Assembly (NCBI GenBank): GCA_963779415.1
Contig: CAVZYA010000001.1
Span: 864,001 to 928,000, forward strand
Origin: an uncultured Acidobacteriota bacterium
GTDB taxonomy: Bacteria; Acidobacteriota; Thermoanaerobaculia; UBA5066
Reading direction: 5' to 3'
DNA: 64,000 bases
The notes beneath the pieces are model-generated. The model worked only from the letters and a program-made list of their open reading frames with translations. It had not been told where the DNA came from and did no database searches. Both the position numbers and the translations under genes were made by a program. Numbering within the stretch: position 1 is the first letter of the stretch; each line of letters opens with the position of its first letter. Below, in pieces: positions 37,538 through 51,149 of the stretch.

Positions 37538-37573
37538 ATGACGAGTATAGGGAAGGCGCGCGGCCCGCCCTCG

Positions 37574-38512
37574 TCAGAACGAGAACGTCAGCCCCGCGCT
37601 GACGACGGCGTACTCGGTCTGGAATCCGTTCAGGTTCCTGAAGGTCGGGATCAGAACGGCCGCGCGCGCCACGACGTCCTCTCCGAGACTCACGAGAACC
37701 CGCGGAGTGACGTAGAGCAGCGCGCCGCCAGTGTCCGGATCCTGACTTCCCGCGGCGTCCACCGTGTCCTTCCCCGCCCATCTGTAGTTCAGTTCGAGAA
37801 CCGCGTCCACGACCCGGCCGAGCTTTCTCTCGTAGCCGAGATTGGCGAGGAAGATCCGGCCGTACTGATAGGCGTAGGGATTCGTCCCCGTCCATCGGAA
37901 TTGAACGGAACCGAAGACCGACGATCCGGCGTCGATCAGGTAGAACCCCCCGATTCCGCCGAAGACGTCCGTGGAGCCCGTTCCCGGCTGCACGTGCTCG
38001 TCCAGCCGGACGCCGTCGGGGCCGGTGAGGTCGTTCCGTCCCCAGGGCGTCTTCACTCCGACCTGCGCGGAGACCCAGGCGCGGCGGCCGACGCCGCGGA
38101 CCATGTCCGACGCCCAGAGACGGACCCAGGCGAAGAACTCCGGATCCGAGAGACCGTTCGTCCGGGTGACGTCCGACAGCTCGTCGCCCGTCGTCGTCAT
38201 CGTCTTGAAGCTGTACGGGACCCGGGCCACGAGATTGATCCGTTCCCCGAGCGAATACGACATCGTCGCGGTGATGCCGTTCTGGACCTCGGATTCCGCG
38301 TCCCCGGGAGGACCCTGGGATTTCTCCATCCTGTCCCAGTCGACGGCGACACGGAAGGCACCTGCCTGGAAGACGTCCGTCCCGAGGGCGTTGAAGGTGG
38401 CATCGCCGCAGCGGCACATGGAGCACGAGAGTCCCGTCGACGGTGCCGCGAGGATCAGGAGGATCGGAACAACCGGAGAGAGGCGCCCGTTTCCGAAGAG
38501 AAGCCTTCTCAT
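37574..38512 (-). CDS. Putative outer-membrane beta-barrel transporter with N-terminal CxxCxC motif
   Basis: Signal peptide then CSMCRCG. GLSD, VKTPWG, QPGTGS motifs, alternating beta strands, terminal Phe. Confidence 0.75.
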   Translation of the reverse strand: MRRLLFGNGRLSPVVPILLILAAPSTGLSCSMCRCGDATFNALGTDVFQAGAFRVAVDWDRMEKSQGPPGDAESEVQNGITATMSYSLGERINLVARVPYSFKTMTTTGDELSDVTRTNGLSDPEFFAWVRLWASDMVRGVGRRAWVSAQVGVKTPWGRNDLTGPDGVRLDEHVQPGTGSTDVFGGIGGFYLIDAGSSVFGSVQFRWTGTNPYAYQYGRIFLANLGYERKLGRVVDAVLELNYRWAGKDTVDAAGSQDPDTGGALLYVTPRVLVSLGEDVVARAAVLIPTFRNLNGFQTEYAVVSAGLTFSF

Positions 38513-38565
38513 CCTGAGACTCCTTCCGAGGCGCCCTGGCCGGAAGGCTGATAATCTCCTTTCCC

Positions 38566-38862
38566 GTGAAGACGAAGGCCCTGCGCCGGACCCTCGCCGT
38601 GGCGGCGATTCTCGTCATCGTAATCGTATTCGCGCTCGAGGGGTTCCCGCACAACCACGTCGGCAGCGTGGACGGCCGTGACTGCCCCGCCTGCCAGGCG
38701 GCCCGGCAGCACGTCGGCGACGCCCCGCAATCCTCCCGCGCCCTTCTCCTCTTCACGAGGGTCGGGTCGCCGCTACCGGGCGAGCCCGCGATCGAGCGGG
38801 TCTCCGCCCCGTCCTTTGTCTCCAGCTCCTCCCCCCGAAGCCCTCCCTCCGTCTCCGTCTGA
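38566..38862 (+). CDS. Leader peptide, DUF2946/CruR-like (TM-HxH-CxxC-RSPP)
   Basis: Hydrophobic segment, HNH, CPAC, PRSPP near the C-terminus. Ends 46 nt before the outer-membrane gene. Confidence 0.75.
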   Translation: MKTKALRRTLAVAAILVIVIVFALEGFPHNHVGSVDGRDCPACQAARQHVGDAPQSSRALLLFTRVGSPLPGEPAIERVSAPSFVSSSSPRSPPSVSV

Positions 38863-38908
38863 CGCGCGTTTCCCTCCACCGACCAGACGCCGCAGCAAGG
38901 AGAATCCC

Positions 38909-39967
38909 ATGCACTTACGAACGGCCGCCCTCGCCGCCCTGCTTGGCGCGAGCCTGCCGTCCCTGGCCCAGACGCCCCAGACCGGAAACGTCTTCAACCC
39001 GAACATCTCCGCGATCGGGGATTTCCTCGCCTCGACCGGGCACAACGAAGTCGACCCGATGCCGAGCCTCGCCCTCCACGAGGCGGAGCTCGGACTCCAG
39101 GCGATCGTCGACCCGTACGCCCGGGCCGACTTCTTCCTGACCTACGGGACTGATACCGGGGACGTCGCGGTCGAGGAGGGGTACGTCACCTTCCTGAACC
39201 TCCCCGGCGACATCCTCCTGAAGGCCGGCAAGCTGAAGGGAGCCTTCGGGAAGCTGAACACCGAGCATCTGCACGTCCGCCTCTTCGCCGACGTGCCGCT
39301 GCCGATGCAGAACCTCCTCGGAAGCGAGGACGGGATCGAAGACGCGGGAATCTCGATCTCGCGAATCATCCCGGCGCCGGCGGGGATCTTCCTCGAGGCG
39401 ACGGCGCAGCTCTTTCGCGGCACGACCGAGAATCTCTTCTACGCGTACACGCGAAGCGACGTCGAGCCCCTCTTCCACCTGAAGGGCTACGGAGACCTTT
39501 CCGAGTCGGCGAATCTCGAGATCGGCGGATCGTGGACGCAGGGGAGCAACCTCCAGGGGCCCGGCTACCGGACCAGCCTCACGGGGGTCGACGCGACGTA
39601 CCGCTGGAGGCCGCTCCAGCAGGGCCTCTACCACTCCCTCATCGTCCAGGCCGAGCTCTACCTCTCGGACCGGGAGGCGCCCGGGGGAACGGTCCACGCG
39701 GCCGGGTTCTACGCGCTCGCGCAATACCAGCTCGGGCGCCGCTGGTTCGCCGGCTACCGGCACGACGAGTCGGACCACGCGGACGACGCCTCGCTCCACG
39801 ACCGGGGCAACTCGCTGATGCTCACCTTCTGGCCCTCGGAGTTTTCCCAGATCCGGGCGCAGTTGCGCCAGAACCGGTACGAACTCGTCACCGGAATCTC
39901 CCAGGCGACCGAACTGATCCTCCAACTGCAGTTCTCGATCGGCGCCCACGGCGCCCACACCTTCTGA
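38909..39967 (+). CDS. Outer-membrane protein associated with Zn/Mn ABC uptake
   Basis: RBS AAGGAG, signal peptide, NPNIS, VDPYARAD, FGKLNTEHLH, PSEFS, C-terminal IGAHGAHTF. Confidence 0.8.
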   Translation: MHLRTAALAALLGASLPSLAQTPQTGNVFNPNISAIGDFLASTGHNEVDPMPSLALHEAELGLQAIVDPYARADFFLTYGTDTGDVAVEEGYVTFLNLPGDILLKAGKLKGAFGKLNTEHLHVRLFADVPLPMQNLLGSEDGIEDAGISISRIIPAPAGIFLEATAQLFRGTTENLFYAYTRSDVEPLFHLKGYGDLSESANLEIGGSWTQGSNLQGPGYRTSLTGVDATYRWRPLQQGLYHSLIVQAELYLSDREAPGGTVHAAGFYALAQYQLGRRWFAGYRHDESDHADDASLHDRGNSLMLTFWPSEFSQIRAQLRQNRYELVTGISQATELILQLQFSIGAHGAHTF

Positions 39968-39968
39968 C

Positions 39969-40892
39969 ATGAAAAAGAAGCTTCTTCTCGCCGCCGCCCT
40001 CCTCCTCGCGTTCCTCGCCCCCGCTCCGGCCCGGGCCGCCCGAAAGCTCCGGGTCGTCACGACGCTCTCGGACTTCGCCTCGCTCGCCCAGACGGTCGGC
40101 GGAGACCGCGTCGACGCGTCCTCGCTCGCGAAGGGGTACCAGGACCCCCACTTCGTCGAGCCGAAGCCGTCGTTCATCCTGAGGCTCCACGACGCCGACC
40201 TCTTGATCGTGGCCGGACTGGAGCTCGAGATCGGCTACCTTCCACCCCTCCTCGACCAGGCGCGCAACGACGCGATCCGCCCGTCGGGCAAGGGATATCT
40301 CGACGCCTCCATCGGCTGCGAGATCCTCGACAAGCCGACGACCCAGGTCACACGGGCGATGGGCGACGTCCATCCGTACGGCAACCCGCACTTCTGGCTC
40401 GCCCCGGCGAACGGGCGCGTCATCGCCGAGGCGATCGCCGCGAAACTCTCCGAGCTCGACCCGGACGGGGCGGCCGTCTACCGGAAGAACCTCGCCGACT
40501 TCGAAGCCCGCCTCGCGGAGGCGGAGGCGCGCTGGACGAAGATGATGGCGCCGTACGCCGGGACGAAGGTCGTCACCTATCACAGCTCCTGGCCCAACTT
40601 CGCGAAGTACTTCAATCTCGACGTGGTCGGCTTTCTCGAGCCGAAGCCCGGCGTCCCGCCGACGCCGCAGCACAAGCTCGAGATCATCAACCTGATGCTC
40701 GAGAAGAAAGTTCCGCTCATCCTGATGGAGGTCTACTTCGACCGGAAGGACCCGGACTTCGTCGCGCAGAAGACCGGCGCGAAGGTCGTGATGCTCACGC
40801 CGTCGGTCGGCGGGCTGCCGGAGGCCAGGGACTACATCGCCCTCTTCGACGTCGACATCGGCTTGATCGTCCGGGCGCTCGGAGGGAAGTAG
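39969..40892 (+). CDS. Metal (Zn/Mn) ABC substrate-binding protein, cluster A-I
   Basis: QDPHFVEPKP, GDVHPYGNPHFWL, TYHSSW, EPKPGVPP. Confidence 0.9.
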   Translation: MKKKLLLAAALLLAFLAPAPARAARKLRVVTTLSDFASLAQTVGGDRVDASSLAKGYQDPHFVEPKPSFILRLHDADLLIVAGLELEIGYLPPLLDQARNDAIRPSGKGYLDASIGCEILDKPTTQVTRAMGDVHPYGNPHFWLAPANGRVIAEAIAAKLSELDPDGAAVYRKNLADFEARLAEAEARWTKMMAPYAGTKVVTYHSSWPNFAKYFNLDVVGFLEPKPGVPPTPQHKLEIINLMLEKKVPLILMEVYFDRKDPDFVAQKTGAKVVMLTPSVGGLPEARDYIALFDVDIGLIVRALGGK

Positions 40893-40893
40893 C

Positions 40894-41727
40894 GTGTCGA
40901 TCTTCCAGATCCTCCTTCCGGCCTTCGTGGCGGCCGTCATCCTGACCGGGATCCACGCCTACCTCGGCGTCCACGTGGTGGAGCGCGGCGTCATCTTCGT
41001 GGACCTCTCCCTGGCGCAGATCGCCGCGTTCGGCGGCACCGTCGGCTACCTCGCCGGCTACGACATCCACTCGCCAATGGCGTATGTCTTCTCGCTCGGC
41101 TTCACCGTCCTCGGAGCCGCCATCTTCGCGTTCACCCGCGTTCACCGCCGGACCCGGATCCCGCAGGAGGCGATCATCGGGATCGTCTACGCCGTGGCCG
41201 CGGCCGCCTCGGTCCTCGTGATGTCCAAGGCGACCCGCGAGACGGAGCACCTGAAAGAGATGCTCGTCGGGAACATCCTCTCGGTCTCCTGGGAGGAGCT
41301 CGGGAAGACCGCCGTTCTCTACGCGCTCGTCGGCCTCTTCCACTTCGTCTTCCGCAAGAGGTTCCTTCTCATCTCCCGGGACGAGCCCGAAGCCGAGCGG
41401 CAGGGCATCAACATCCGCTTCTGGGACTTCCTCTTCTACGTCTCGTTCGGGTTCGTCGTGACGAGCTCCGTGGCGATCGCGGGCGTTCTCCTCGTCTTTT
41501 CGTTCCTCATCGTGCCGTCGGTCGCCGCGATGCTCTTTTCCGAGCGGCTCGGAATCCGGCTCTTGATCGGCTGGACGATGGGGGTCGGCGTCTCGGCGGC
41601 CGGCGTCGCCCTCTCGTTCTTCCTCGACCTGCCGACGGGCACCGCGATCGTCGTCACCTTCGGAATCACCCTCGTTCTCCTGGCCGGGATCCGGTGGGCG
41701 TTCGGGCTCCGCTCCGCCCGGGCCTGA
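40894..41727 (+). CDS. Metal ABC permease (ABC-3)
   Basis: HVVERGVIFVDL, EAIIG, GNILSV, GVLLVFSFLIVP. Confidence 0.9.
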   Translation: MSIFQILLPAFVAAVILTGIHAYLGVHVVERGVIFVDLSLAQIAAFGGTVGYLAGYDIHSPMAYVFSLGFTVLGAAIFAFTRVHRRTRIPQEAIIGIVYAVAAAASVLVMSKATRETEHLKEMLVGNILSVSWEELGKTAVLYALVGLFHFVFRKRFLLISRDEPEAERQGINIRFWDFLFYVSFGFVVTSSVAIAGVLLVFSFLIVPSVAAMLFSERLGIRLLIGWTMGVGVSAAGVALSFFLDLPTGTAIVVTFGITLVLLAGIRWAFGLRSARA

Positions 41728-41736
41728 AACCGGAAC

Positions 41737-41760
41737 AGGGCCGGCGCGAAGCCGGCCCTT
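41737..41760. terminator. Hairpin between convergent genes, candidate terminator
   Basis: AGGGCCGGC-GCGAA-GCCGGCCCT 9-bp perfect stem with only short U tails. Confidence 0.5.
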
Positions 41761-41784
41761 CCTGATTCGGTGATCCGAACGCCG

Positions 41785-42495
41785 TCAGCCGGCTTTCGCG
41801 AGGTTTTCCGCGGCGAACTCCCAGTTGACCAGCTTCTCGAGATACGCGGTGATGTAGTCGGGGCGCCTGTTCTGCCAGTCCAGGTAGTAGGCATGCTCCC
41901 AGACGTCCATCGTCAGGAGCGGCGTGGCGGCGGTCGTGAGCGGCGTTTCGGCGTTCGGAGTCTTTGCGCACTTCAACTTTCCGCCGTCGAGAACGAGCCA
42001 GGCCCAGCCGCTGCCGAACTGGGTCACCCCGGTCGTCGCGAACTCCTTCTTGAAGTTCTCGAGCCCGCCGAAGTCCTTCTCGATCATCTCCTTCAGCTTC
42101 CCCGACGGAGAGCCGCCCCCCTTGGGCCTCATGCTCTTCCAGTAGAAGGTGTGGTTCCAGACCTGCGCCGCGTTGTTGAAGATCCCGGCCTTGTCGGGCT
42201 TCCCCGCGACGGCCCTGACGATCTTCTCGAGGGGCAGGTCGGCCAGCTCGGTCCCGGCGATCAGCTTGTTCGTGTTGTCCACGTATGCCTTGTGGTGCTT
42301 GCCGTAGTGGAAGGAGATCGTGTTCGCAGAGATCTCCGGGGCGAGGGCGTTGTCGGAGTACGGGAGAGGCGGAAGTTCGATCATCGAGGCTCCTTTCAGG
42401 ATTGCCGGCGAGCCGAGAACCACCGCCGCGGCGCCGGTCGCCACGACGAGGTCGCGTCGTGTGAGCATAGAGGATTCGCTCCGGCCGTTGGTCAT
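41785..42495 (-). CDS. sodB: Fe superoxide dismutase with twin-arginine signal
   Basis: TRRDLV Tat motif. HYGKHH, FNNAAQVWNH (Fe-type), FGSGWAW, DVWEHAYY. Confidence 0.9.
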   Translation of the reverse strand: MTNGRSESSMLTRRDLVVATGAAAVVLGSPAILKGASMIELPPLPYSDNALAPEISANTISFHYGKHHKAYVDNTNKLIAGTELADLPLEKIVRAVAGKPDKAGIFNNAAQVWNHTFYWKSMRPKGGGSPSGKLKEMIEKDFGGLENFKKEFATTGVTQFGSGWAWLVLDGGKLKCAKTPNAETPLTTAATPLLTMDVWEHAYYLDWQNRRPDYITAYLEKLVNWEFAAENLAKAG

Positions 42496-42573
42496 GGCTC
42501 CCCTTTTCGCATCCGCATCCCATTATCCGACGGAAAAAGCCGAGCGGATGCCCGCCGGCGCGGCTCGGAGGCC

Positions 42574-45012
42574 TCAGAAGAGAAACGTGAGCTTCCCGGC
42601 GACCGTCCGGGGCGGGATGACGTGGGTTCCGCCGAAGACGGACTGGAAATTATAGAGACCCTGAACGTCGAAGGCGTTGAGGAGGTCGACCTGAAGCTCG
42701 AGCGGAAGGCCATACTTCTGGAGGCCCGCGCCGATGGAAAAGTTCCAGATCGTCCGCGACTTCACGCGCTGAGGGTCCTCGTTGAAGTTGATGTAGGGAG
42801 CGGCATAGGCCGTGTCGGGGCTCGAGAGAACGTCCTGGATCGTCCCGGCGTCCGTGACGAGGCCCGAATCGTACCGCTGCGTCATGCCGACCCAGACCCC
42901 CGTGCTCCCGAAGTTGTAGAAGAGGCCCACCTGCTCCTGGATGTCCTGGTCGTGGTCGATGACGAAGCAACCGCCTTCGAGAGACGACAGAAAGTCGGCC
43001 GTCAGGAAGAGGCCGCCGACGTTCGGATTGCAATACACCGCGTGCACGTGTCCGATCGACGCGTACCCGTAAAGGCCGCCGAGGACGGGGGCCAGGTCGA
43101 GCCGGACGTTCCAGCCGTTCAGCTTCCCGCTCGCGAAGTTGAGAGGGAAGACGATGCCCGTATTGAAGAACTGGTCCTGATCGGCGGCGTTCGTCACGTT
43201 CCGGTACCAGTACGAGACGTCCAGCCGCAGCTTCGTCCCGATCCCCTGCTGGACCCCGACGTTGTAGACGTCGTGCCGCTCCGAGACGTTGTAGAGGTCG
43301 CCCCCCCCTAGCTGCGGCGCCTCCTGGATCTGGGGCGGGGCGATCGACGCCGCCTGGGGTGACGAGGAGAGAAGGATGTTCTCGTACTCCGGCGTAATGA
43401 ACATCCGGTCGTAGGAAGCCCGGAAGACGGTGTTCGTGGCCCCCAGGAAATAGGCGACGCCGACGCGAGGCTGGAGCTGGTGCTCGGATTCGAAGAGATA
43501 GTTGTGGTCGAACCGGATGCCGACATTCGCGGTCAGGTCGTTCCACCGGATGCTGTCCTGGAGAAATCCGGCGACGTAAGCGCCCGTCCTCGATCCCGTG
43601 AAGTAGAAGGGGGAGCCTCCCCGCGTTCCGTCGTACGGGGCGAGGTTCGGGTTGTAGCTCTCCGACGCCGGGTCGTTGTAGGCCGGGTCGGTCACGAGGA
43701 AGGAAAACTGCTCCGAGATCGGAAAGCGCTTCGCCTGGATGCCGGCCTTGAATTCGTTGATCCCGATCGTCTTCGACAGGGCGACGTTGAATCCCTGGTT
43801 CTCGAGCGACCGGTTCTGGTCCGCCTGGACAGGGGTGTCGAAGGACGACCCGTAGAGGATCAGGCGGTTGTCCCGCGCGTAGAGCTGTCCCTCCAGCACC
43901 CAGGCGTCCCCGAAGACGTGCTGGTAGCCGAGGTTGAGGTTCCAGTCGTTCGAGACCACCTGGTCGCTCTGCCCGGCCAGCTCCTGGGACGGGAGGTTCG
44001 TGACGTCGCGCTCCGTCCGCCCGAGGTTGGCGCTGAGCCTCCAGCTGTCCGATGCGCTCGCCGAGACCGAATCGAGGCGCACGAAGCCGCGTACCGCGCT
44101 TCCCGTGTTGTGGGAGTTGTCGAACGAGACTGGATCGAGAAACCGGTCGGAGCGCGAAGCGTCCGCGTCGGCGAACCAGCCGAACCGGCTGTCGCCCCCT
44201 CCGGCCGAGACCGAGCCGACTCCCGTCCCGAACGAGGCGCCTCCCAGGGAAACCTCGCCCCTGACTCCGTTGGTCCCGAGGCCCGACCGGGTCGTCAGGT
44301 TGATGACGCCATTCGCCTTCTCTCCGTATTCCGCCGGGATCCCCCCCGTGATGACCTCGACGCCCTCGGCGACTCCGGGATTGAGGGAGTTCGAGAACGT
44401 GATGCCGATCTGGTCTCCGATCGGCTGGCCGTCGACGACGAGGAGCTGCTGCGAGTGTCCTCCCTGGAAGTGGTACCGCCCGTTCTCGTCCTGCGAGAAG
44501 CCGGGGGTCGACGTCACGAGCGACTCGAAGGCCCGGCTCGGCATTCCGCCCGGGGACCGCCGGATGAGCGACTTGTCGATGTCCACGTGCGTGGACGGGT
44601 CGTCGGTCTCCAGCGCGACCGGCTCCTTCTCGGCCTCGACCGTGGTCGATGCCGTGGCCGAGAGGCTCAGGACGATGTCCCGGACCACCGGTGCGGAGCC
44701 TCTCACGTCCAGATCGGTGTGATAGGGAGCGAAGCCGTCCAGAGAGGCGGTGAGGTGATAGGGGTTGGCGGGGACGTTGTAGAGGAGGTAGGCACCGTCC
44801 AGCCCGGACGTCGCCTGCTGGCGATACCCGGTGATGTCATTCGTCAGGGCGATGCTCACGCCGGGGAGCGGCATGCCGTCGGGGCCGATGACGTGCCCCC
44901 GGACCCGGCCGGCAACGGCGGTCATTGCAGAGACGGGACGGGAGACGACGACGGCAACCAAGAGAAAGACGAGCGCAAACGCGACGCGGCGAGCGATGTC
45001 TCTGGGCCTCAT
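42574..45012 (-). CDS. TonB-dependent receptor with N-terminal carboxypeptidase-regulatory-like domain
   Basis: RBS AAGGAGG, signal peptide, plug motifs VDGQPI and ITGGIPAEYG..GVINL, PRVG, NAFD, terminal Phe. Confidence 0.92.
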   Translation of the reverse strand: MRPRDIARRVAFALVFLLVAVVVSRPVSAMTAVAGRVRGHVIGPDGMPLPGVSIALTNDITGYRQQATSGLDGAYLLYNVPANPYHLTASLDGFAPYHTDLDVRGSAPVVRDIVLSLSATASTTVEAEKEPVALETDDPSTHVDIDKSLIRRSPGGMPSRAFESLVTSTPGFSQDENGRYHFQGGHSQQLLVVDGQPIGDQIGITFSNSLNPGVAEGVEVITGGIPAEYGEKANGVINLTTRSGLGTNGVRGEVSLGGASFGTGVGSVSAGGGDSRFGWFADADASRSDRFLDPVSFDNSHNTGSAVRGFVRLDSVSASASDSWRLSANLGRTERDVTNLPSQELAGQSDQVVSNDWNLNLGYQHVFGDAWVLEGQLYARDNRLILYGSSFDTPVQADQNRSLENQGFNVALSKTIGINEFKAGIQAKRFPISEQFSFLVTDPAYNDPASESYNPNLAPYDGTRGGSPFYFTGSRTGAYVAGFLQDSIRWNDLTANVGIRFDHNYLFESEHQLQPRVGVAYFLGATNTVFRASYDRMFITPEYENILLSSSPQAASIAPPQIQEAPQLGGGDLYNVSERHDVYNVGVQQGIGTKLRLDVSYWYRNVTNAADQDQFFNTGIVFPLNFASGKLNGWNVRLDLAPVLGGLYGYASIGHVHAVYCNPNVGGLFLTADFLSSLEGGCFVIDHDQDIQEQVGLFYNFGSTGVWVGMTQRYDSGLVTDAGTIQDVLSSPDTAYAAPYINFNEDPQRVKSRTIWNFSIGAGLQKYGLPLELQVDLLNAFDVQGLYNFQSVFGGTHVIPPRTVAGKLTFLF

Positions 45013-45019
45013 GGGGATT

Positions 45020-45385
45020 CGAGCCTCCTTCTGATGAATCAGGCAGGAAAGGAGACCGCGGCAGGCGGCCTCCCGGACCACGGACGACGGGCGTCTCTAC
45101 GCGGCCGGGAGACGGGGCGGGGAACGCCCCGTGAGATCCGGAAGGGACGGCCGGGCGACAGGGGTCTCTGCAGACGGCACGACCCCGGGCACCGAGCCCG
45201 GCTGAGCGACGATTGTCGGACCGGCGGCACCTTCGTGGGCGCTCGCGAGAGCGCACGCGAGGCACGCTCCGTCCTGCGTTCCCGTCGCCGCAGCGTGGGC
45301 GTGAAGCCCTGCAAGCGCTGCCAGGAAGAGCGCGAGAAGCCCCGCGGAGAGGAGGCGACGCGCGAGTCCCCTCATGGGTTCGGGA
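45020..45385 (-). repeat. Copy A of a duplicated leader-ORF plus UTR module
   Basis: Near-identical to 48390..48758 over the uORF and the downstream UTR through the AAGGAGG SD. Confidence 0.85.
45097..45375 (-). CDS. Leader peptide, DUF2946/CruR-like (TM-HxH-CxxC-RSPP)
   Basis: LHAH, CLAC, GRSPP. Upstream of the TonB receptor and paralogous to 48470..48748. Confidence 0.8.
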   Translation of the reverse strand: MRGLARRLLSAGLLALFLAALAGLHAHAAATGTQDGACLACALASAHEGAAGPTIVAQPGSVPGVVPSAETPVARPSLPDLTGRSPPRLPAA

Positions 45386-45439
45386 ATTCTGGCAAGTGCG
45401 TCCTAGTCATCCGTCTCGTGCCCCGACAATTCGGTTTCC

Positions 45440-47893
45440 CTACTGCGGGAGGAGCGTCGCCGGGTCGTTCGTCCCGTTGTTGACGAGCGAGGCGAATCCC
45501 GTGAAGGTCGCTCCCGGAGTCGTCGTCCAGACGACGAGGGTCCCCGCCGATCCTTTTGGCGCCCCGACGCCCGTCGTGACGACCCGGTTGATCTGCGTCA
45601 TCCCGAGCTGCGCGAGTGTCACGCTCTGCGTCGTTCCGAGCTGCGTCCCGTCGTCGGCGTACAGGGCGTAACCGACGGTGATCGGGTAGGGGGTGACCCC
45701 TCCGTCCGGCGGCCCGTTCACGAGGACGAGGTTGGTCCTCACCTTGTCATCCTCGCGGACTCCCACGATCGCCACATTCGTCCCGGGCCGGAACCACGAC
45801 GCACTCGGGATCCCCGGCACGCTCTGGCCGAAGCGCCCCGGCCCGGATGGCGCCGGGGTCGTCGTCACGCTGTCGATGGCGAGACCCGGCGAGCTGCTCG
45901 TGACGAGGATGGCGCCGAAGTCCCGGTTCGACGAAAGGCCGAAGACAGAGCCGAGGACGTCGCGGAACGTGTAAGCCGTCTGCGGGTTCAGCGAGTAGCT
46001 CTTCGTCGGTCCCGTGCTTCCGTCGGGCGTCCCGAACGCGAGATAGCGCAGCGTCACGTTCGCCGACGTGGAGCCGACGTTCGCGAGGAAGAAGTCGGTG
46101 GTGTACATGGCCGGGGCTGCCACCGTGCCGCCGGCGGACCGGGCGACCGAGGGGACGATGAAGCTGGCGGCGCCGCTTCCGCCGAACCCGGTCGAGGCGA
46201 AGAGAGTCGCCGGGTCGTTCGTCCCGAGATTGTCGAGGAGGGAGGCGAAGGCCGTGAAGGCGCCCCCCGAGGTCGTCGTCGAGAGCGTGATCGTCGCGTT
46301 GGACGTGCTGCGGGTCCCCGTGATCGTCTGGATGACTCGGGGGAGCTGGGTCATCTCCAGCGGCTGCAGCGTCGGCGGCGTCAGCGTCCCGAGGTTCGCG
46401 CCGTTGTCGTCCCGGAGGCCGATCAGAACGTCGAGCGGCTGGTCGGTGGTGTTGACGAGGACGAGGTTCGTCCGGGCGGTGGAATCCTCACGGACTCCGG
46501 CGATCGCTCCCGGGGAGCCGGGCGAGATGAGCTGGGACGCCATCACCGCCGGAACGCTCTGGCCGAAGGCTCCCGTGCCGTCGGGCGTCGGGGTCGTCGT
46601 GACGCTCGAGACCTTCAGCGACGCCGAATTCGCGCTGACCCGGATCGCGCCGTAGTTGTTCCCCGTGAGGCCGAAAAGAGACGAGAGGACGTCCGCGTAG
46701 GTGAGGGCGTCCCCCGGGGCCACCGTCGCCGTCAGCTCGGGGCCCGAGGTCCCGTCCCCGTCGTGGCCGAGAAACTTGAATATCATGGTCGCGTCCGAGG
46801 ACCCTTCGTTCGCGACGAAGAGGTCCGTCGTGAAAAACGCCGGGGCGGCCGGCGTGCCGCCGGCCGTATGGGCGACCGATGCGACGTAGTAGTACGTCGG
46901 ACCGATCGGCGACGAGCCCCACCAGCCGATGTCCCGGAGGGCGTTCGGCGTGATGTCGACCCCGATCGGGAGATCGTCGTTGATGACCGGCTCCATCAGG
47001 ATGTCCGGGACGCACGACGTGTCCCAGTGCGACACGTTCGAGCCCGCCTGCACCGGGTTCGGCGCGTAGAGGAGCATCTGCCCGGCCGTGTTCATCCCCT
47101 TTCGCTGGACGAGGTACGCCGCCCCCGCCGCGTTCGCGGACGGGCCGGTCCAGACGAGGTTCCCCGTGTTGATCGCCGAAGCTTGCCGCTCGGCATCCGT
47201 CGCCATGTCGTTCCAGCTCTTCTTCGCCGTCGTGTCGTAGACGAAGGCGTCGAAAATGTCGGGCTGCGGCTGGTCTTGACAGCAGAACGTACCGGTCGTC
47301 TCGTCCGCGAGAGAGAGGAAGCCGAGGCCGTGGGCCGTCTCGTGAAGAGCGACCGTCAGGAGGTTGATGTCGCCGGAAGGGGTGTTCGTGTCGAAGCCGT
47401 AATAAAAATTGGTTCCGCTCAGGCAGCCGGACTGCCCCAGCATGCTGTTGAACTGCGTCGTCATGTATCCGACGTACCCTGCTTCGTAGGGGGGCTCGAG
47501 GTCGTAGCCCGCGAGCTGGCTCGCCTCGGCCACGACGTACCAGACGCCCGGGAGGACTCCGTCGGCGAAATCGGACTCGACGTAGTTCGGCGACGTCCCT
47601 CCGAGGACAGCCGTCGTCGATGAGCACGAGAGGGACTCGAAAGAGGCCCAAACGGTGATGTTGACGTTCCCGGGAAGGATGCCGCCCCAGATATCGGCGG
47701 CCTTTTGCAGCACGTTCATCCGCTGCTGGCCGATCGTCGTCCCGGGGTTTCCGCCGACGGGCGTGGCCGGTGTCGGGTCGTTCAGTCCCTGACCGGCGGC
47801 GTCCTTGTTGACGATCGTGATCGTCACGGCATGGGCGGGGAGGACGGCGAGAAAGACGAGAAGGACCGCGAGAAGAAGCGTCGTCCGGCGCAT
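45440..47893 (-). CDS. Secreted zinc metallopeptidase-like protein with C-terminal tandem repeat domains
   Basis: Signal peptide, NDPTP..PVGGNPGTT, HETAHGLGF (HEXXH), SHWD..LMEP. Two C-terminal repeats (TTDxFxAN / RTNLVLVN / FASL..N.GTNDP). Confidence 0.82.
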   Translation of the reverse strand: MRRTTLLLAVLLVFLAVLPAHAVTITIVNKDAAGQGLNDPTPATPVGGNPGTTIGQQRMNVLQKAADIWGGILPGNVNITVWASFESLSCSSTTAVLGGTSPNYVESDFADGVLPGVWYVVAEASQLAGYDLEPPYEAGYVGYMTTQFNSMLGQSGCLSGTNFYYGFDTNTPSGDINLLTVALHETAHGLGFLSLADETTGTFCCQDQPQPDIFDAFVYDTTAKKSWNDMATDAERQASAINTGNLVWTGPSANAAGAAYLVQRKGMNTAGQMLLYAPNPVQAGSNVSHWDTSCVPDILMEPVINDDLPIGVDITPNALRDIGWWGSSPIGPTYYYVASVAHTAGGTPAAPAFFTTDLFVANEGSSDATMIFKFLGHDGDGTSGPELTATVAPGDALTYADVLSSLFGLTGNNYGAIRVSANSASLKVSSVTTTPTPDGTGAFGQSVPAVMASQLISPGSPGAIAGVREDSTARTNLVLVNTTDQPLDVLIGLRDDNGANLGTLTPPTLQPLEMTQLPRVIQTITGTRSTSNATITLSTTTSGGAFTAFASLLDNLGTNDPATLFASTGFGGSGAASFIVPSVARSAGGTVAAPAMYTTDFFLANVGSTSANVTLRYLAFGTPDGSTGPTKSYSLNPQTAYTFRDVLGSVFGLSSNRDFGAILVTSSSPGLAIDSVTTTPAPSGPGRFGQSVPGIPSASWFRPGTNVAIVGVREDDKVRTNLVLVNGPPDGGVTPYPITVGYALYADDGTQLGTTQSVTLAQLGMTQINRVVTTGVGAPKGSAGTLVVWTTTPGATFTGFASLVNNGTNDPATLLPQ

Positions 47894-47897
47894 CTCG

Positions 47898-48383
47898 TCA
47901 CTTCTCCTCGGCGGCGGGCTTGGCCGCGGGGGCGGGGGCTTTCAGGGCTTCGCCGACCTTCGAAGCCGGCACGCACTCCTCGGAGAGCGTTCCGTCCGCG
48001 TTCTTCCGGACGACGGAATAACGGAAGTACTCGGGGCCTAGCTGCGCCCGCCTCCGCCCCGACGGGAGAGTTTCGACGGTCGTCGTCCGGACCCCCTTCG
48101 AGAAGGCCGGCTTGATCGCCGCCCCCGCGGCGCGAAGAGCCTCGATCTCCTTCGCCGTCGGCGCGCGAAGCTTCCCGGTGTCCGGATCCCTCACCACGAT
48201 CATCCGCGGTGCGGTCTTGCCGGCAGGCTCGGCGGCCGCCGGGGACTTCGGCGCGTCGCAGGCTGGCACAGTTTCCTTCGTGTCTCCTGCGAGAGCGCCA
48301 GTCGAGGCGAATAGAGCCCCCGCGAGAACCACCAATCCCGTCGGAGAAATCTTCATGCGGCAGGTACTGTTCCGGAGTGTCAT
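47898..48383 (-). CDS. Small secreted protein (RDPDTGKLRAPT motif, post-PEP-CTERM-1-like)
   Basis: SD AAGGAGG 10 nt upstream, signal peptide, VVRDPDTGKLRAPT, YSVVRKNADGTL..EC. Alternative start at 48356. Confidence 0.75.
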   Translation of the reverse strand: MTLRNSTCRMKISPTGLVVLAGALFASTGALAGDTKETVPACDAPKSPAAAEPAGKTAPRMIVVRDPDTGKLRAPTAKEIEALRAAGAAIKPAFSKGVRTTTVETLPSGRRRAQLGPEYFRYSVVRKNADGTLSEECVPASKVGEALKAPAPAAKPAAEEK

Positions 48384-48389
48384 GACCTT

Positions 48390-48758
48390 CGGGCCTCCTT
48401 CCGAATGACGAATCAGGGAGGGAGACCGCAGCAGGCGGCCTCCCGGACCACGGACGACGACGACCGTCTCTACGCGGCCGGGAGGAAAGGCGGGGAACGC
48501 CCCGTCAGATCCGGGAGGGAGGGCCGGGCGGGAGGAAGATCGGCGGAAGGTACGACCCCGGGCACCGAGTCCGGTTGGGGGACGATTGTCGGGCCGGTGG
48601 CACCCTCGTGGGCGCTCGCGAGAGCACACGCGAGGCAAGATCCGTCCTCCCCTCCCACCGTCGCCGCATGGACATGAAGCCCAGCAAGCGCCGTCAGGAA
48701 GAGCGCGAGAAGCCCCGCGGTGAGTAAGCGGCGCCCGAATCCCCTCATGGGTGACAGA
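48390..48758 (-). repeat. Copy B of the duplicated leader-ORF plus UTR module
   Basis: Near-identical to 45020..45385. Confidence 0.85.
48470..48748 (-). CDS. Leader peptide, DUF2946/CruR-like (TM-HxH-CxxC-RSPP)
   Basis: LHVH, CLAC, GRSPP. Same 92-aa length as 45097..45375 with the frame preserved. Confidence 0.8.
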   Translation of the reverse strand: MRGFGRRLLTAGLLALFLTALAGLHVHAATVGGEDGSCLACALASAHEGATGPTIVPQPDSVPGVVPSADLPPARPSLPDLTGRSPPFLPAA

Positions 48759-48775
48759 AGTCTAGCAAACGGGTC

Positions 48776-49582
48776 TCAGTCCCCCCTCTGGCGACGCGAG
48801 AGAAGAAAGGCCGCGACGAAGAGAACGGCCCCGAGGAGGATGATGGCCGCCCCCGACGCGACGTTCAGGGCGACGGAGAGGAAGAGGCCCCCGAGGACCA
48901 TGACGAGGGCCGCGCCGATGGAGCCCGAGAGGAGCCCGGGCCACCGGTCGAAGAGGGTCCGTGCGGTGGCCCCCGGAAGGACGAGGAGGGCCGCGACGAG
49001 GAGGATGCCGACGACCTTCAGCGCGACGACGACCGCGAGCGAGATCAGGACGAGGACGAGGAGGCGCATCGCCCCGACGTTCACGCCGGCGGCCCGGGCG
49101 CCGTCCTCGTCCACGGAGGCGAGGAGAAGCGGCCGGAACCAGGCCGCGAAGACCACGAGGACGGCGAGCGCGGTGCCGACGAGGATCGCGAGGTCGGCGG
49201 GGCTGACCGTCAGGATGTTCCCGAACATCAGGCCGAAAAGGTCGACGTTCGTCTTCACGAAGCCGAGGGCCACGACGCCGACAGCCATCGCCGCCACCGT
49301 GGACACGCCGATGGCGGCGTCCTCCGAGACTCCCGAAGCTTCCGACGCGTGGGCCGTCGCCAGCGCCACGACGAGCGCGGCGACGAGCGCTCCGGGGCCG
49401 GGCGGGAGGCCCGCCAGCGTCGCCACGGCCACGCCTCCGAAGGCCGCATGCGCCACCCCCGATCCCGCGAAGGCGAGCCGCCGGAGGACGACGAAGAAGG
49501 AAAGCGCCCCGCAGAGGACCGCCGCCACGACGCCCGCGACGAGCGCCCGCTGGAAGAACGGGTAGGCGAGGAACTCGATCAC
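48776..49582 (-). CDS. znuB: Zn/Mn ABC permease
   Basis: FFQRAL, VAHAAFGG, DAAIG, FGNIL, VVGILLV. Confidence 0.85.
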   Translation of the reverse strand: MIEFLAYPFFQRALVAGVVAAVLCGALSFFVVLRRLAFAGSGVAHAAFGGVAVATLAGLPPGPGALVAALVVALATAHASEASGVSEDAAIGVSTVAAMAVGVVALGFVKTNVDLFGLMFGNILTVSPADLAILVGTALAVLVVFAAWFRPLLLASVDEDGARAAGVNVGAMRLLVLVLISLAVVVALKVVGILLVAALLVLPGATARTLFDRWPGLLSGSIGAALVMVLGGLFLSVALNVASGAAIILLGAVLFVAAFLLSRRQRGD

Positions 49583-50247
49583 CGCGGTGCCTCCACCGGC
49601 TCCTCCGTGACGACCCCGTCCACACGGAAGAGGGCGTCCGCCCCCCCCATCGAATCCGTGTCGTGGGAGACGAAGAGAATGGTCCGCCCAGCCGCCGTCT
49701 CCTCGGCGATGACGCGGCGAAGGGTCATGAGCCCGTTCGAGTCGAGGGCCGTGTCGGGCTCGTCGAGGACGAGCATCGCGGGGCTTCCCGCGAGCGCCCT
49801 CGCGAGCAGAACCCTCTGGCGCTGCCCGCCGGAGAGCTTCCCCACCGGGCGGTCGAGCGTCTCCGCAGGAAGACCAGCCCGGAGGAGGGCGGCGCGGGCT
49901 TCGCCCCGCGCCTCGTCGCGGCGCCCGAACCCCGGGCGCGGGTCGAGCGAGAGGGCCACGAGATCGACGCCGGAGACGGGAGCCAGCGCCGAGAGGGTCG
50001 AGCGCTGCGAGAGATATCCGACGCGGGGACGAGGGACCTCGCGTCCCGATTCGTCCACGAAAACGACCCGGCCCGAATCGGCCGCGATCGCACCGACGAG
50101 AACGCGAACGAGCGTCGTCTTCCCCCCGCCGTTCGGCCCGACGAGGGCGGTCCGGACGCCGGGAGGAACCGAGAAGGAGACGTCCCGGAGGACCGGACGC
50201 CCGCCGAGCGACGCCGTGATTCCCTCGAAACGGATGCCGACTCTCAA
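49579..50247 (-). CDS. znuC: Zn/Mn ABC ATP-binding protein
   Basis: TTG start overlapping the upstream stop. GPNGGGKTT, LSGGQRQR, LDEP, VSHD. Confidence 0.85.
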   Translation of the reverse strand: MRVGIRFEGITASLGGRPVLRDVSFSVPPGVRTALVGPNGGGKTTLVRVLVGAIAADSGRVVFVDESGREVPRPRVGYLSQRSTLSALAPVSGVDLVALSLDPRPGFGRRDEARGEARAALLRAGLPAETLDRPVGKLSGGQRQRVLLARALAGSPAMLVLDEPDTALDSNGLMTLRRVIAEETAAGRTILFVSHDTDSMGGADALFRVDGVVTEEPVEAPR

Positions 50248-51149
50248 CGGACCTCCAGCCCGTCCCGGAATGCCCGCGCGTTGAAGAGGAGAAGCTCCTC
50301 GTATCCGAGGCGCCCCGGCAGGCCGCCGACCGGGTCGACCATCTCGACCCTGAGCCCCGCCTCGTCCGCGACGACGCGGGCCGCCTCGAGCGGAAACTGC
50401 GGCTCCGTGAAGAGCGTCCGGAGCCCCTCTCGCCGTGCCGCCAGGACGAGCGACTGGATCTCCCGCGGCGACGGCTCGCGTCCCGGCACCGGCTCGATGG
50501 AGCCCGCCGGCTTCAGCCCATAGCGATCGGCGAAGTAGGCCCAGGCGTTGTGCGCCGTGACGATGGACGATCCCGCGACGGGGCGGAGTGTCCGCGAGAT
50601 CTCGGCGTCGAGGCGCGAAAGCTCCGCCGAGAAGGCTGCCGCGCGGCCGCGGTAGCCCGCGGCGCCCGCCGGGTCGATTGCCGACAGCTCCCCGGCCAGC
50701 GCGGGGAGGATCTTCGCGACGAGAGGGGGCGAGAGCCACCAGTGAGGATCGTGGCCGAGGACGCCGTCCTCGTCCTCGCCGTGCGCCTCGCCTTCGCCCA
50801 GGGCCACGATCCCGGCCGCTTTCCCGCCGTCGAACAGCTTCGCGTCCGAGGCGCACGCCGCCGCCAGCTTCGCAACCCATCCGTCGTACCCCGCCCCGAC
50901 GGTCACGACGAGCCGCGCCCGCGCCACGAGGCGCACCTCCTTCGGAGTCGGCTCGAAGACGTGCGGGGAGACTCCCGGCGGAACGATCGTCCGGACCTTC
51001 CACCCGGGCCCCGCCACGTGCGCCACGACATCCGCGAGCGGCGAGATCGTCGCCGCGGCGGCCAGTGCCTCCGGCGCGGGCGCCCGCCCGGCGCAGGCGG
51101 CGATCAGGAGGGCGCCGAGGGAGGAGGCGAGCCGGGGCATCCTCCGCAT
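50244..51149 (-). CDS. znuA: Zn/Mn ABC substrate-binding lipoprotein
   Basis: LIAAC lipobox-like, SPHVFEP, acidic/His loop EAHGEDED, DPHWWLSP, HNAWAY. Confidence 0.85.
   Translation of the reverse strand: MRRMPRLASSLGALLIAACAGRAPAPEALAAAATISPLADVVAHVAGPGWKVRTIVPPGVSPHVFEPTPKEVRLVARARLVVTVGAGYDGWVAKLAAACASDAKLFDGGKAAGIVALGEGEAHGEDEDGVLGHDPHWWLSPPLVAKILPALAGELSAIDPAGAAGYRGRAAAFSAELSRLDAEISRTLRPVAGSSIVTAHNAWAYFADRYGLKPAGSIEPVPGREPSPREIQSLVLAARREGLRTLFTEPQFPLEAARVVADEAGLRVEMVDPVGGLPGRLGYEELLLFNARAFRDGLEVR

Follow-up and report, generated by a model that had tools for sequence, protein, structure and literature searches.

Among peptides that arrest their own ribosome, the closest characterised relative of those described here is CruR (Bp2923) of Bordetella pertussis, the prototype of the Pfam family DUF2946. 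This small upstream ORF combines an export signal or transmembrane segment, an invariant CxxC and, at a distance of 45 residues (PMC9426467), RAPP codons shortly before its stop, and it precedes copper-type uptake genes that include a TonB receptor. CruR arrest has been demonstrated in vitro (PMC12992588); lack of metal causes the stall that keeps the downstream genes on, and the coupling uses a 162-nt Rho-dependent terminator region (PMC9426467). For CutF of Rhodobacter capsulatus, a stalled ribosome is proposed to free a Shine-Dalgarno (SD) sequence masked by a stem-loop, with sensing perhaps in the periplasm. CutF has a CxxxC and an EF-P-dependent PPP-type motif, and copper strengthens its stall, thus inducing a detoxifying oxidase (PMC9973294; 10.1101/2025.02.05.636593). 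CutF-like proteins are reported not to be all copper-specific (PMC9973294); the main text of that paper contains none of the terms zinc, ZnuA, PF01297 or Acidobacteri.

A C-terminal R-[A/G/S]-P-P core is also found in ApdA/ApdP and in SecM (RAGP), small exported or membrane proteins whose ORFs lie upstream of the genes they regulate, which monitor the activity of Sec/YidC and lack a metal site. Ser, Ala and Gly are reported as arrest-competent or arrest-permissive at motif position 2; in the reported data RSPP, which is underrepresented in proteomes, is 'partially permissive' for arrest in ApdA/ApdP mutants and was recovered in random-sequence screens, these being its only sources there, and it is not the natural predominant form (PMC12992588). 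In an artificial construct without a membrane anchor, the ADR1a Cys2His2 finger was fused to the SecM arrest peptide, and its zinc-dependent folding releases the arrest, with an optimal tether of 24-26 residues that corresponds to folding within the tunnel (PMC4571824).

The window analysed here, a stretch of 64,000 nucleotides from an uncultured Acidobacteriota bacterium, contains three paralogous ORFs of this general type, all present where the initial annotation had placed them: ORF1 at 38566..38862 on the plus strand, and ORF2 (45097..45375) and ORF3 (48470..48748) on the minus strand. The features that were said to unite them are likewise present in each, namely a basic N-terminus, a hydrophobic segment, HxH, CxxC, a Pro/Ser-rich linker and RSPP four to five codons before the stop. 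ORF1, a type-A leader peptide of 98 aa with a GTG start, reads H29-x-H31, C40-x-x-C43, H49, a linker of 47 residues and R91-S-P-P94, with four codons left before the stop. The type-B peptides ORF2 and ORF3, both of 92 aa, share H25-x-H27, C38-x-x-C41 and R84-S-P-P87 (45115-45126 and 48488-48499, respectively) followed by five codons to the stop, ORF2 also having H47 and a 42-residue linker. HxH is HNH, HAH and HVH in ORF1, ORF2 and ORF3, and CxxC is CPAC, CLAC and CLAC. The two pairs lie 8-10 residues apart, forming a potential Cys2His2-type site straight after an N-in membrane helix. In the AF2 model of ORF1, the transmembrane helix spans residues 2-26 (pLDDT >90), a short helix (41-51) lies at the CxxC and the remainder is disordered. 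All three ORFs fall within the published CutF-like filter, which asks for fewer than 150 aa, a signal at the N-terminus, PP among the final 15 residues and, no more than 1000 nt downstream, a gene on the same strand (PMC9973294).

The genes that follow were correctly named in the initial annotation. ORF1 is separated by a 46-nt leader (38863..38908, plus strand; SD AAGGAGA at 38897-38903) from a gene for a 352-aa protein with a signal peptide (38909..39967, plus strand), modelled as a 16-strand beta-barrel (AF2, pTM 0.73). No Pfam family matches this porin; its Foldseek matches are OprP/OprO and general porins (E 5e-11), and its more than 6,452 homologues are every one named 'hypothetical'. 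It would be the first gene under ORF1 control. There follow a ZnuA-family solute-binding protein (39969..40892, plus strand; PF01297, 4e-51) and a ZnuB-like ABC-3 permease (40894..41727, plus strand). For both ZnuA proteins of the window the best match is the zinc-binding ZnuA of Synechocystis, with aligned His ligands; for the first one, whose best solved relative is 2ov1/1pq4, the histidines of DPH, PH-W and -H-SW are kept.

ORF2 and ORF3 are situated on the minus strand. The statement that each ORF lies directly upstream of an exported gene holds, but neither of these two heads an operon, both being located inside one long same-strand array. The array includes a second transporter set (48776..51149: znuA 50244-51149, znuC 49579 to about 50250, znuB 48776-49582), and ORF3 starts 27 nt past znuB. 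After ORF3 and its 86-nt leader (48384..48469) come an exported protein of 161 aa (47898..48383) that has a post-PEP-CTERM-1 domain (NF047450, 7e-25) and a secreted 817-aa HExxH protein (45440..47893) with an NF038122-like metalloprotease domain and two repeats of about 220 aa. ORF2 and its 84-nt leader (45013..45096; SD AAGGAGG at about 45024-45030, hairpin GGAGGCCGC/GCGGUCUCC at about 45051-45073) precede a TonB-dependent receptor (42574..45012) that carries a CarboxypepD_reg domain at its N-terminus, and the array, all on the minus strand, ends in an Fe/Mn superoxide dismutase (SOD) with an N-terminal twin-arginine-like signal (41785..42495). Homology between the two type-B copies begins about 30 nt ahead of the ATG, continues through the leader and SD and stops at the ATG of the following gene; ORF2 and ORF3 arose by duplication of a cassette of about 395 nt comprising ORF, leader and SD. 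A metagenome contig has type B in single copy, in the order znuC-znuB-[type B]-TonB receptor.

The relatives that were found all belong to one Thermoanaerobaculia family and sit nearly always before a porin/OMP-ZnuA-(ZnuC)-ZnuB operon. The order small ORF, OMP/porin, ZnuA, (ZnuC), ABC-3 permease recurs in 11 of 11 Acidobacteriota loci, while the upstream neighbours of the leader vary in distant genera. When loci were chosen by the porin homologue, a leader was present upstream in 9 of 13 and was not found in three (L040, L042 and L048); the gene after the porin encodes ZnuA in the first two of these and a ceramidase in the third. ZnuA follows the porin in seven of the eight such loci tested. 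It had also been noted that the island shows no Fur/Zur-type regulator; the genome does have two Fur-family genes, outside the island on contig C2.

Kinship with DUF2946 is visible at the profile-profile level only. The Pfam model gave no match at E <= 10, on the peptides or on the six-frame translated genome, whereas hhalign of the family profile against true Acidobacteriota DUF2946 proteins gave a probability of 79.8% (E = 1.5e-5). The architecture is the same in both groups, CxxC and RxPP being 43-44 residues apart in the DUF2946 proteins, and an ESM-Atlas feature search places the leader ORF next to Acidobacteriota clusters auto-named DUF2946 or bearing PF11162. The HxH was earlier regarded as an addition to the DUF2946 plan, but the His following the membrane helix does not set this family apart: it is invariant in four bona fide Acidobacteriota DUF2946 proteins. 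Compared with CruR, the leaders share the layout and the position before metal-uptake genes including a TonB receptor, but they have RSPP for RAPP, a far shorter helix-to-CxxC segment, a Cys2His2-like ligand set (H-x-H/C-x-x-C) and zinc-type partners (ZnuA with three His). Moreover, their leaders measure 46-86 nt with predicted SD masking, as proposed for CutF, and two copies lie within an operon-like array, not at its head. Like the ADR1a-SecM construct, they have a Cys2His2 mini-domain ahead of an arrest site of R-x-x-P type, here on a tether of 42-47 residues, and that construct offers a physical precedent for a zinc-driven release step (PMC4571824).

Every comparative test agrees with the core of the initial reading, a CruR-like RSPP leader used three times to sense a metal, probably zinc. 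Judging from sequence comparison, we consider it fairly likely that the three ORFs are arrest leaders of the CruR/CutF type, probably zinc-sensing, with the stalled ribosome sitting over an anti-SD in type A and over arm 1 of an RNA relay in type B. As in RAPP peptides, arrest would occur when the first Pro codon of the motif occupies the P site and the second the A site; in ORF1, the presumed arrest site consists of the codons CGA AGC CCT CCC (38836..38847, plus strand), where, on the model of the CruR toeprint (PMC12992588), Pro93 would fill the P site and Pro94 the A site. The 42-47-residue spacer would then put the metal site either just beyond the tunnel exit or across the Sec channel, and arrest would last while this site is empty. 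In type A, the stalled ribosome would cover a UCUCC otherwise paired with the porin SD. In type B, the codons after RSPP would form arm 1 of a three-stem relay (1:2, 2:3, 3:4), so that its occupation moves the fold to 2:3 and frees the SD from masking stem 3:4. In either case the downstream uptake genes would therefore be on. Binding of metal, most likely Zn(II), would fold the His/Cys loop, pull on the chain and release the arrest, after which termination and refolding of the mRNA would turn the downstream gene off. Three units would be gated in this way: porin-znuA-znuB, the TonB receptor (with the Fe/Mn SOD following) and the pair of post-PEP-CTERM and HExxH-protease genes. The identity of the metal, the direction of the response and the sensing compartment we infer from the neighbouring genes. 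Since RSPP is only 'partially permissive' in the ApdA/ApdP mutants, arrest at the leaders may be weak.

For type A, the tail codons of ORF1 contain a predicted anti-SD, UCUCC (38852..38856, plus strand; +10..+14 nt from the P-site codon), which would pair with GGAGA (38899-38903) of the porin SD. Between the SD and the stall footprint of 24 nt, the predicted pairing probability is 0.76; control segments of the same ORF average 0.27, and 8 of 43 of them pair as well as the footprint. Across type A, the predicted probability is 0.33-1.0 in 11 of 12 loci, and in eight of the 12 at most 4 of 43 controls reach the score of the footprint; in two loci (L006 and L026) the footprint does not stand out from the controls, of which 29 of 43 score as high. 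The consensus helix is UCUCC/GGAGA in genus g1 and GUCUCUCC/GGAGAGAC in g5. Pro/Ser codons are anti-SD-like by nature. Compensatory covariation was found in 0 of 14 pairs of the g1 fold, where the anti-SD/SD pairs are invariant, and the g5 fold has two-sided changes in 5 of 35 pairs, all outside the anti-SD/SD helix.

Direct pairing between SD and footprint is absent in ORF2 and ORF3 (0.00 and 0.06). The type-B consensus fold consists of stem 1:2 and stem 3:4, the latter masking the SD, with compensatory covariation in 0 of 32 pairs. Masking of the footprint shifts the predicted SD accessibility modestly, the probability that the SD is unpaired rising from 0.06 to 0.31, 0.17 to 0.29 and 0.13 to 0.28. 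Leaders of trp-type attenuators form alternative stems 1:2, 2:3 and 3:4. Similarly, a ribosome on segment 1 of type B is predicted to move the fold from 1:2 plus 3:4 to 2:3; however, the output stem masks an SD and is not a terminator, and the ribosome would be held by nascent-peptide arrest, not by a shortage of charged tRNA.

The same sensing and arrest could instead act as in CruR, the stalled ribosome hiding a C-rich Rho-loading site or blocking Rho from reaching the polymerase, and metal-triggered release letting Rho end transcription before the next gene. This coupling, possible but on balance unlikely, has the precedent of the closest relative (PMC9426467); a rho gene is present in the genome, and no intrinsic terminator was found in the leaders. 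Over 684 windows from 13 neighbouring genes, the 99th percentile of the C/G ratio is 2.27; the 3' end of ORF1 exceeds it at 3.2-3.7, and ORF3 reaches 1.9-2.2, but ORF2 has only 1.6-1.7, below the 95th percentile, and C-richness near the ORF ends arises from the Pro/Ser codons. The leaders are also short compared with the 162 nt of CruR, and the anti-SD geometry is kept across genera. Note also that Rho and SD-masking couplings can coexist.

Of the 38 aligned family members, 37 retain HxH, CxxC and RxPP, and the position before porin/OMP-ZnuA operons is kept across genera. H29, C40, C43 and PP are invariant; the motif is RSPP in 28 members, RAPP in six, RGPP in three and GAPP in one (L009), position 2 being limited to Ser, Ala or Gly. 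Seven further members (type C), upstream of porin homologues, all have RSPP, and a remnant (L038) has R-L-P-P and no CxxC. Synonymous change is free (Arg CGA/CGT/CGC/CGG/AGA, Ser AGC/AGT/TCC, Pro all four CCN), and dN/dS in the annotated frame is 0.28-0.59 (ORF1 against its orthologues 0.55-0.59, ORF2 0.28-0.36), compared with 1.3-2.9 in the two other frames, the range found for ORF2. Purifying selection therefore operates in the annotated frame only, and on the peptide, not on the RNA.

This selection, the transmembrane helix with a membrane-adjacent Cys2His2 site and the co-localisation with uptake genes would also suit stable membrane-anchored periplasmic metal-binding proteins, for example chaperones passing zinc to ZnuA or the receptor, in which RxPP serves structure or interaction or causes only a brief pause; CutF was originally conjectured to be a chaperone (PMC9426467). 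We find this improbable. Over half of the peptide is predicted to be disordered and is unalignable, yet its length is fixed: the spacing of CxxC and RxPP is 46-47 residues in all 12 of the type-A and distant loci, and 42 residues in 3 of 3 type-B and 7 of 7 type-C loci, with linker sequences that cannot be aligned between genera. The restriction of motif position 2 and the copying of the noncoding leader along with the ORF as far as the next ATG also argue against it, and RAPP-like motifs are reported to be strongly avoided in ordinary proteins (PMC12992588).

If the arrest reading is retained, the polarity could be that of CutF, metal strengthening the stall and excess inducing the downstream genes, as was shown for CutF and copper (PMC9973294; 10.1101/2025.02.05.636593) with an architecture that is alike. 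We judge this highly improbable: the downstream genes, for a porin, ZnuA/B and a TonB receptor, serve import and neither efflux nor detoxification, and their induction by excess would be harmful. The opposite polarity is therefore expected, and the CruR logic suits importers. There is a slimmer chance still that the CxxC is a thiol-disulfide sensor tying envelope oxidation to Mn/Zn import and periplasmic SOD, and not a metal ligand. The array does end in an SOD gene, and RAPP/RGPP small proteins are also reported upstream of DsbA and thioredoxin genes (PMC12992588), but a conserved HxH goes with the CxxC, and the conserved partner is ZnuA, no redox gene.

The possibility that these are accidental reading frames in GC-rich DNA is ruled out by the conservation data, there being at least 38 homologues with conserved motifs, dN/dS below 1 in the annotated frame alone and conserved synteny. 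It is this conservation that sets the three ORFs above chance, as R[AGS]PP alone is not rare here: 105 of the 13,777 six-frame ORFs of 50-160 aa in this genome carry it in the last 14 residues, a frequency like that of four permuted control motifs (94-143 ORFs each). Adding an N-terminal hydrophobic segment leaves four ORFs, and adding CxxC or HxH leaves exactly ORF1, ORF2 and ORF3.

Three small open reading frames (ORFs) lie exactly where the initial annotation had placed them, namely ORF1 at 38566-38862 on the plus strand (98 aa), ORF2 at 45097-45375 on the minus strand (92 aa) and ORF3 at 48470-48748, also on the minus strand (92 aa). They have in common a basic N-terminus, a hydrophobic helix, an HxH motif, a CxxC motif, an extra histidine and a Pro/Ser/Ala-rich stretch, and each ends with RSPP, then 4 or 5 codons and the stop. 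These ORFs are a real, conserved feature and, judged from sequence, most likely represent a metal-sensing (probably zinc-sensing) arrest leader that is used three times. R[AGS]PP within the final 14 residues is found in 105 of the 13,777 six-frame ORFs of 50-160 aa in the organism's own genome, and four permuted control motifs occur there 94-143 times, so that the motif alone is unremarkable in this GC-rich DNA. When an N-terminal hydrophobic segment and either CxxC or HxH are demanded in addition, ORF1-3 alone remain in this survey, and a profile built from them finds just these three copies in the 4.36-Mb genome. Beyond them, the survey of RxPP leaders yielded one doubtful 62-aa ORF, on another contig (C2).

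A word-indexed search of 5.8 billion proteins returned 24 relatives of 84-122 aa, the few named ones being from Thermoanaerobaculia, and only 8 relatives came out of 1.84 billion cluster representatives searched exhaustively by HMM. Among 301 genomes of the class, matches were confined to the window's own family, where 6 of 26 other genomes hold a single copy each. Across a 38-sequence alignment of the leader-peptide family, H29, C40, C43, P93 and P94 are invariant and R91 occurs in 37 sequences, the motif reading RSPP in 28 cases, RAPP in 6, RGPP in 3 and GAPP in one. The tail after R[S/A/G]PP measures 2-8 residues, the flanks of the core are conserved within subtypes (SP-RSPP, TG-RSPP), and the RxPP codons show free synonymous variation. 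The dN/dS ratio is 0.28-0.36 among copies of type B, to which ORF2 and ORF3 belong, and 0.37-0.59 among orthologues of type A, to which ORF1 belongs; in the other two frames of the type-B copies, the type on which this control was run, it is 1.3-2.9. The single GAPP belongs to a locus (L009:6001-6291) that departs from RxPP by reading R-P-G-A-P-P, and an indel is possible there, since adjoining genes are fused into over-long ORFs in that assembly (L008-L010). A remnant upstream of a porin gene at a contig end (L038) terminates in G-R-L-P-P-GSVPIA and lacks CxxC. Both departures may be sequencing indels or decaying copies. A candidate locus in Gemmatimonadaceae (L012) was discarded as spurious, being a 22-residue match that adjoins a transaldolase gene.

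The kind of element to which these ORFs can be compared is already published, as CruR of Bordetella pertussis (DUF2946) and CutF of Rhodobacter capsulatus have been characterised. The domain model gave no backing to a kinship with DUF2946, against which the initial annotation had suggested an HMM search: PF11162 matched none of the three peptides at E <= 10 (gathering score 23.7 bits) and nothing in the six-frame translation of the genome, Pfam and NCBIfam returned nothing meaningful for the three peptides, and one relative, of the third subfamily (type C), reached 12.9 bits (E = 0.19), against the same gathering score. Profile-profile comparison of the 38-sequence alignment with four Acidobacteriota DUF2946 proteins (hhalign) gave a probability of 79.8% and E = 1.5e-5 over 43 columns that span the transmembrane (TM) helix, the histidine and CxxC. 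An ESM-Atlas feature search gave 0.95 to clusters auto-named DUF2946, one of which carries PF11162 on 54% of its members. The four bona fide Acidobacteriota DUF2946 proteins have the same overall plan, with an invariant histidine after the helix, R[AG]PP and a CxxC-RxPP spacing of 43-44.

The CXXC of the CruR/DUF2946 family is present in all members of the alignment (C40 and C43, 38/38), and its N-terminal signal peptide or Nin-Cout TM segment is matched here by a predicted TM helix. Where DUF2946/CruR proteins carry RAPP about 3 residues before the C-terminus, R[S/A/G]PP is found here (37/38), the window's own copies having RSPP and not RAPP. The family's place as the first gene of a metal-homeostasis operon may have its counterpart in type A, which precedes an outer membrane protein (OMP) and ZnuA in 11/11 loci, whereas type B sits after znuB within a same-strand array. 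The ORFs agree with the CutF-like rule as described in PMC9973294, with 92-98 aa, PP at -5 to -7 from the C-terminal end, a TM helix and gaps of 46, 84 and 86 nt. Arrest of the ApdA/ApdP class needs a RAPP-like core together with the adjacent N-terminal region, and it is the core that can be recognised here from sequence. Considering the lack of a PF11162 match, the tentative profile-profile kinship, the shared plan and the agreement with the CutF-like rule, we file the ORFs as a putative divergent, minimal branch of the CruR/CutF kind, outside PF11162 as now modelled.

The distance between the cysteines and the presumed arrest motif appears to act as a ruler. For CruR, 45 residues between CXXC and RAPP, conserved within one or two, are described, and an insertion of five residues impairs regulation (PMC9426467). 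In type-A and distant loci, this spacing is 46-47 residues (12/12), close to the CruR value, whereas it is 42, three residues short of CruR's 45, in type B (3/3) and in type C (7/7, all with RSPP); the linkers themselves are not alignable between genera. Type C was met by looking upstream of porin homologues in other genera, sequence searches with types A and B not having retrieved it. Its loci (L039, L041, L043-L047) come from other genera of the family and encode peptides of ~105-120 aa with a His-rich insert between the helix and CxxC and the motif context G/A-RSPP. The hydrophobic stretch that follows the basic N-terminus has Kyte-Doolittle values of 2.3-3.5. The AF2 model from the 38-sequence alignment contains a confident helix at residues 2-26 (pLDDT above 90) and a short helix at 41-51 that starts at CxxC, the rest being disordered and no folded domain being predicted. 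As modelled, the peptide has the build of a tethered sensor plus spacer and not that of a folded protein.

Acidobacteriota loci share one gene order (11/11): downstream of the small ORF, and in its orientation, come genes for a Pfam-less OMP and ZnuA, in most cases one for a short ZnuC, and one for an ABC-3 permease. Relatives retain both the RxPP motif (37/38) and the position before OMP/porin-ZnuA (11/11). In distant genera the upstream neighbours vary (saccharopine dehydrogenase, methyltransferase, MeaB), and the small ORF appears to head its unit there. The porin gene of the window (38909-39967, plus strand) encodes a predicted 16-strand protein (AF2 pTM 0.73) that Foldseek relates to OprP/OprO and to general porins (E ~5e-11). 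It belongs to a family of more than 6,452 proteins (E <= 1e-5), all of which are unnamed and without a Pfam or NCBIfam model. A genome of the same genus (G052) has a 482-aa OMP after the leader in place of the porin. When 13 loci of the family with porin homologues were inspected, a CxxC...RSPP ORF lay upstream of the porin in 9, the degenerate remnant of L038 (RLPP) in one and no leader in 3; ZnuA follows the porin in 7 of the 8 loci tested.

Both ZnuA proteins of the window find their best match in the zinc-binding ZnuA of Synechocystis. In the alignments the histidines of DPH, PH(I/F)W and (F/Y)H(P/S)SW are kept, which we take to be the metal ligands of a three-His site (the third being His, not Glu), and the assignment to zinc is based on this match, on the kept histidines and on that presumed site. 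The statement that the island has no Fur/Zur-type regulator gene holds for the window, which is without any Fur-family gene, but not for the genome, which has two on another contig.

On the minus strand, an uninterrupted array consists of a HEAT-repeat gene, znuA, znuC, znuB, ORF3, a post-PEP-CTERM-1 gene, a gene for an HExxH protein, ORF2, a TonB receptor gene and an Fe/Mn SOD gene, with 27 nt between znuB and the start of ORF3. A metagenome contig of a relative has the order znuC-znuB-[one type-B ORF]-TonB receptor, the metagenome scan having given at least one type-B locus among the matches listed. ORF2 and ORF3 are similar from ~30 nt ahead of their ATG, across the coding region and the leader (84/86 nt), as far as the ATG of the following gene, which is a different one in each copy. 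The copied unit was thus the ORF, its leader and the Shine-Dalgarno sequence (SD). The two copies differ by a dS of 0.36 with a dN/dS of 0.36, which indicates that both are maintained. We take this maintained duplicated cassette, as read from sequence comparison, as the strongest single argument for a probable cis-regulatory role.

Coupling to the downstream gene is predicted to differ between the types. The consensus folds of type A in two genera (g1 and g5) each close the entire leader within a helix that runs from the codons right after RxPP to the SD (g1: UCUCC/GGAGA; g5: GUCUCUCC/GGAGAGAC). The anti-SD nucleotides lie at +8 to +16 from the P-site codon, which in these models is within the reach of an arrested ribosome. 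Pairing between the SD and the 24-nt footprint of such a ribosome is predicted with a probability of 0.33-1.0 in 11 of 12 loci. When other 24-nt pieces of the same ORF were swapped in as controls (n = 43), at most 4 of the 43 equalled or beat the real footprint in 8 of the 12 loci, as did 8/43 for ORF1 of the window and 29/43 for each of L006 and L026. The predicted pairing thus has moderate support, Pro/Ser codons being anti-SD-like by nature. In three g5 loci (L022, L024 and L025), a GC-rich hairpin, CUCCGCCC...GGGCGGAG, is conserved 12 nt beyond the small ORF's stop codon; it has no U-tract and lies inside the long anti-SD/SD helix of the leader.

Direct anti-SD pairing is not predicted for ORF2 and ORF3, and a relay model was adopted instead. 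In the type-B consensus of three leaders, a first stem pairs the tail codons CCUCCCGGCCGCG with CGUGGUCCGGGAGG and a second stem masks the SD. Masking of the footprint is predicted to favour an alternative hairpin, GGAGGCCGC/GCGGUCUCC, and to leave the SD unpaired with a probability of 0.28-0.31, up from 0.06-0.17. In the within-type folds (g1 and g5 of type A; type B), the helices proposed for the anti-SD or the relay show no compensatory changes. A joint alignment of type-B and type-C leaders was poor and is not counted as covariation support, only stem 1:2 surviving, with 8 pairs of which 5 have some double changes and several are broken. It is also possible that coupling is Rho-dependent, as in CruR; the genome has Rho, and towards its 3' end ORF1 has an unusually high C and low G content. 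The three leaders contain no terminator-like site, Rfam gave 0 matches to a known riboswitch or leader RNA over 37000-52500 at E <= 1, and a scan for sigma-70 promoters gave 0 sites against 0.5 expected. Among indexed sequencing runs, none of RNA was listed as a match, and the best-matching DNA run contained 0.22 of the words.

Concerning the presumed arrest leader itself, the invariant H-x-H and C-x-x-C would provide a Cys2His2 ligand set directly after the membrane helix. Approximately 30 residues are reported to occupy the tunnel at arrest (PMC4571824), and with a spacer of 42-47 residues the metal site would thus be placed just outside the ribosome or, should the helix insert with its N-terminus inside, at the translocon's outer face. 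Release of the arrest by metal binding is physically plausible by analogy, since the zinc-dependent folding of a Cys2His2 finger is described to abolish the arrest of SecM both in vitro and in living cells (PMC4571824). As the controlled genes are importers, the polarity expected is that of CruR, in which the stall is relieved by metal and expression of the genes is shut off, and not that of CutF.

In its fullest form, our proposal is that these would be the first natural zinc-sensing arrest peptides, in which a nascent Cys2His2 knuckle, tethered to the membrane and exactly one 'tunnel plus translocon' length (42-47 residues) away from R-S-P-P, would report periplasmic or peri-ribosomal zinc and gate the translation of zinc importers, and that a portable cassette of ~395 nt (ORF, relay leader and SD), copied within the operon, would have extended this control by metal to a new gene pair, that of a secreted HExxH protein and the post-PEP-CTERM protein that is its partner. 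We advance it tentatively and give it appreciably less than an even chance. To our knowledge, post-transcriptional metal sensing via nascent peptides is known for copper only (CruR, CutF). If true, the proposal would fill a gap, since according to the CruR authors (PMC9426467) riboswitches for Cu or Zn are not known, and would be the natural equivalent of the force experiments on engineered zinc-finger/SecM constructs. The window also suggests that such switches can work inside operons and spread as small cassettes.

An arrest leader linked to zinc was described in none of the papers that our literature search brought up. Small RAPP/RGPP proteins upstream of TonB receptors and metal genes are reported across phyla in PMC12992588, in the main text of which 'ABC transporter' does not occur, and CutF-like proteins with His and/or Cys motifs are called 'not all Cu-specific' in PMC9973294, the main text of which is without the words zinc and ZnuA. 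A table of the Caulobacter Zur regulon places DUF2946 genes beside czrCBA and beside a sodA/TonB-receptor cluster, the mechanism being uncommented (PMC4176598). What the window adds is a lineage in which RSPP is the prevailing natural form, with three subtypes, in-operon use, a relay-type leader and a cassette duplication that recruited a protease locus. The ORFs are unannotated and invisible to Pfam, and are thus missed by genome annotation and by Zur-centred regulon prediction.

Several neighbouring genes deserve mention. A divergent trio (35604-38512, minus strand) encodes a 312-aa exported protein, an ABC ATPase and a MacB/FtsX permease; the exported protein belongs to no family, has CSMCRC near its N-terminus and ends in Phe. 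The same trio is found upstream of the type-A ORF in L006-L010 and is absent there in distant genera. The HEAT-repeat gene (51201-52028, minus strand) shares its strand with znuA, which it precedes by 51 nt, and is a possible first gene of the long array on that strand. The HExxH protein (45440-47893, minus strand) is secreted and has 817 aa, with a weak match to the metalloprotease model NF038122 and two internal repeats of ~220 aa; its gene starts 4 nt after that of the 161-aa post-PEP-CTERM-1 domain protein (47898-48383, minus strand). It is a speculation that an HExxH zinc enzyme behind a presumed zinc-starvation switch serves zinc scavenging. Finally, the Fe/Mn SOD (41785-42495, minus strand), which closes the array after the TonB receptor, has a twin-arginine-like signal (…TRRDLV…) and may, when metal is limiting, stand in for Cu,Zn-SOD in the periplasm without a need for Zn or Cu.
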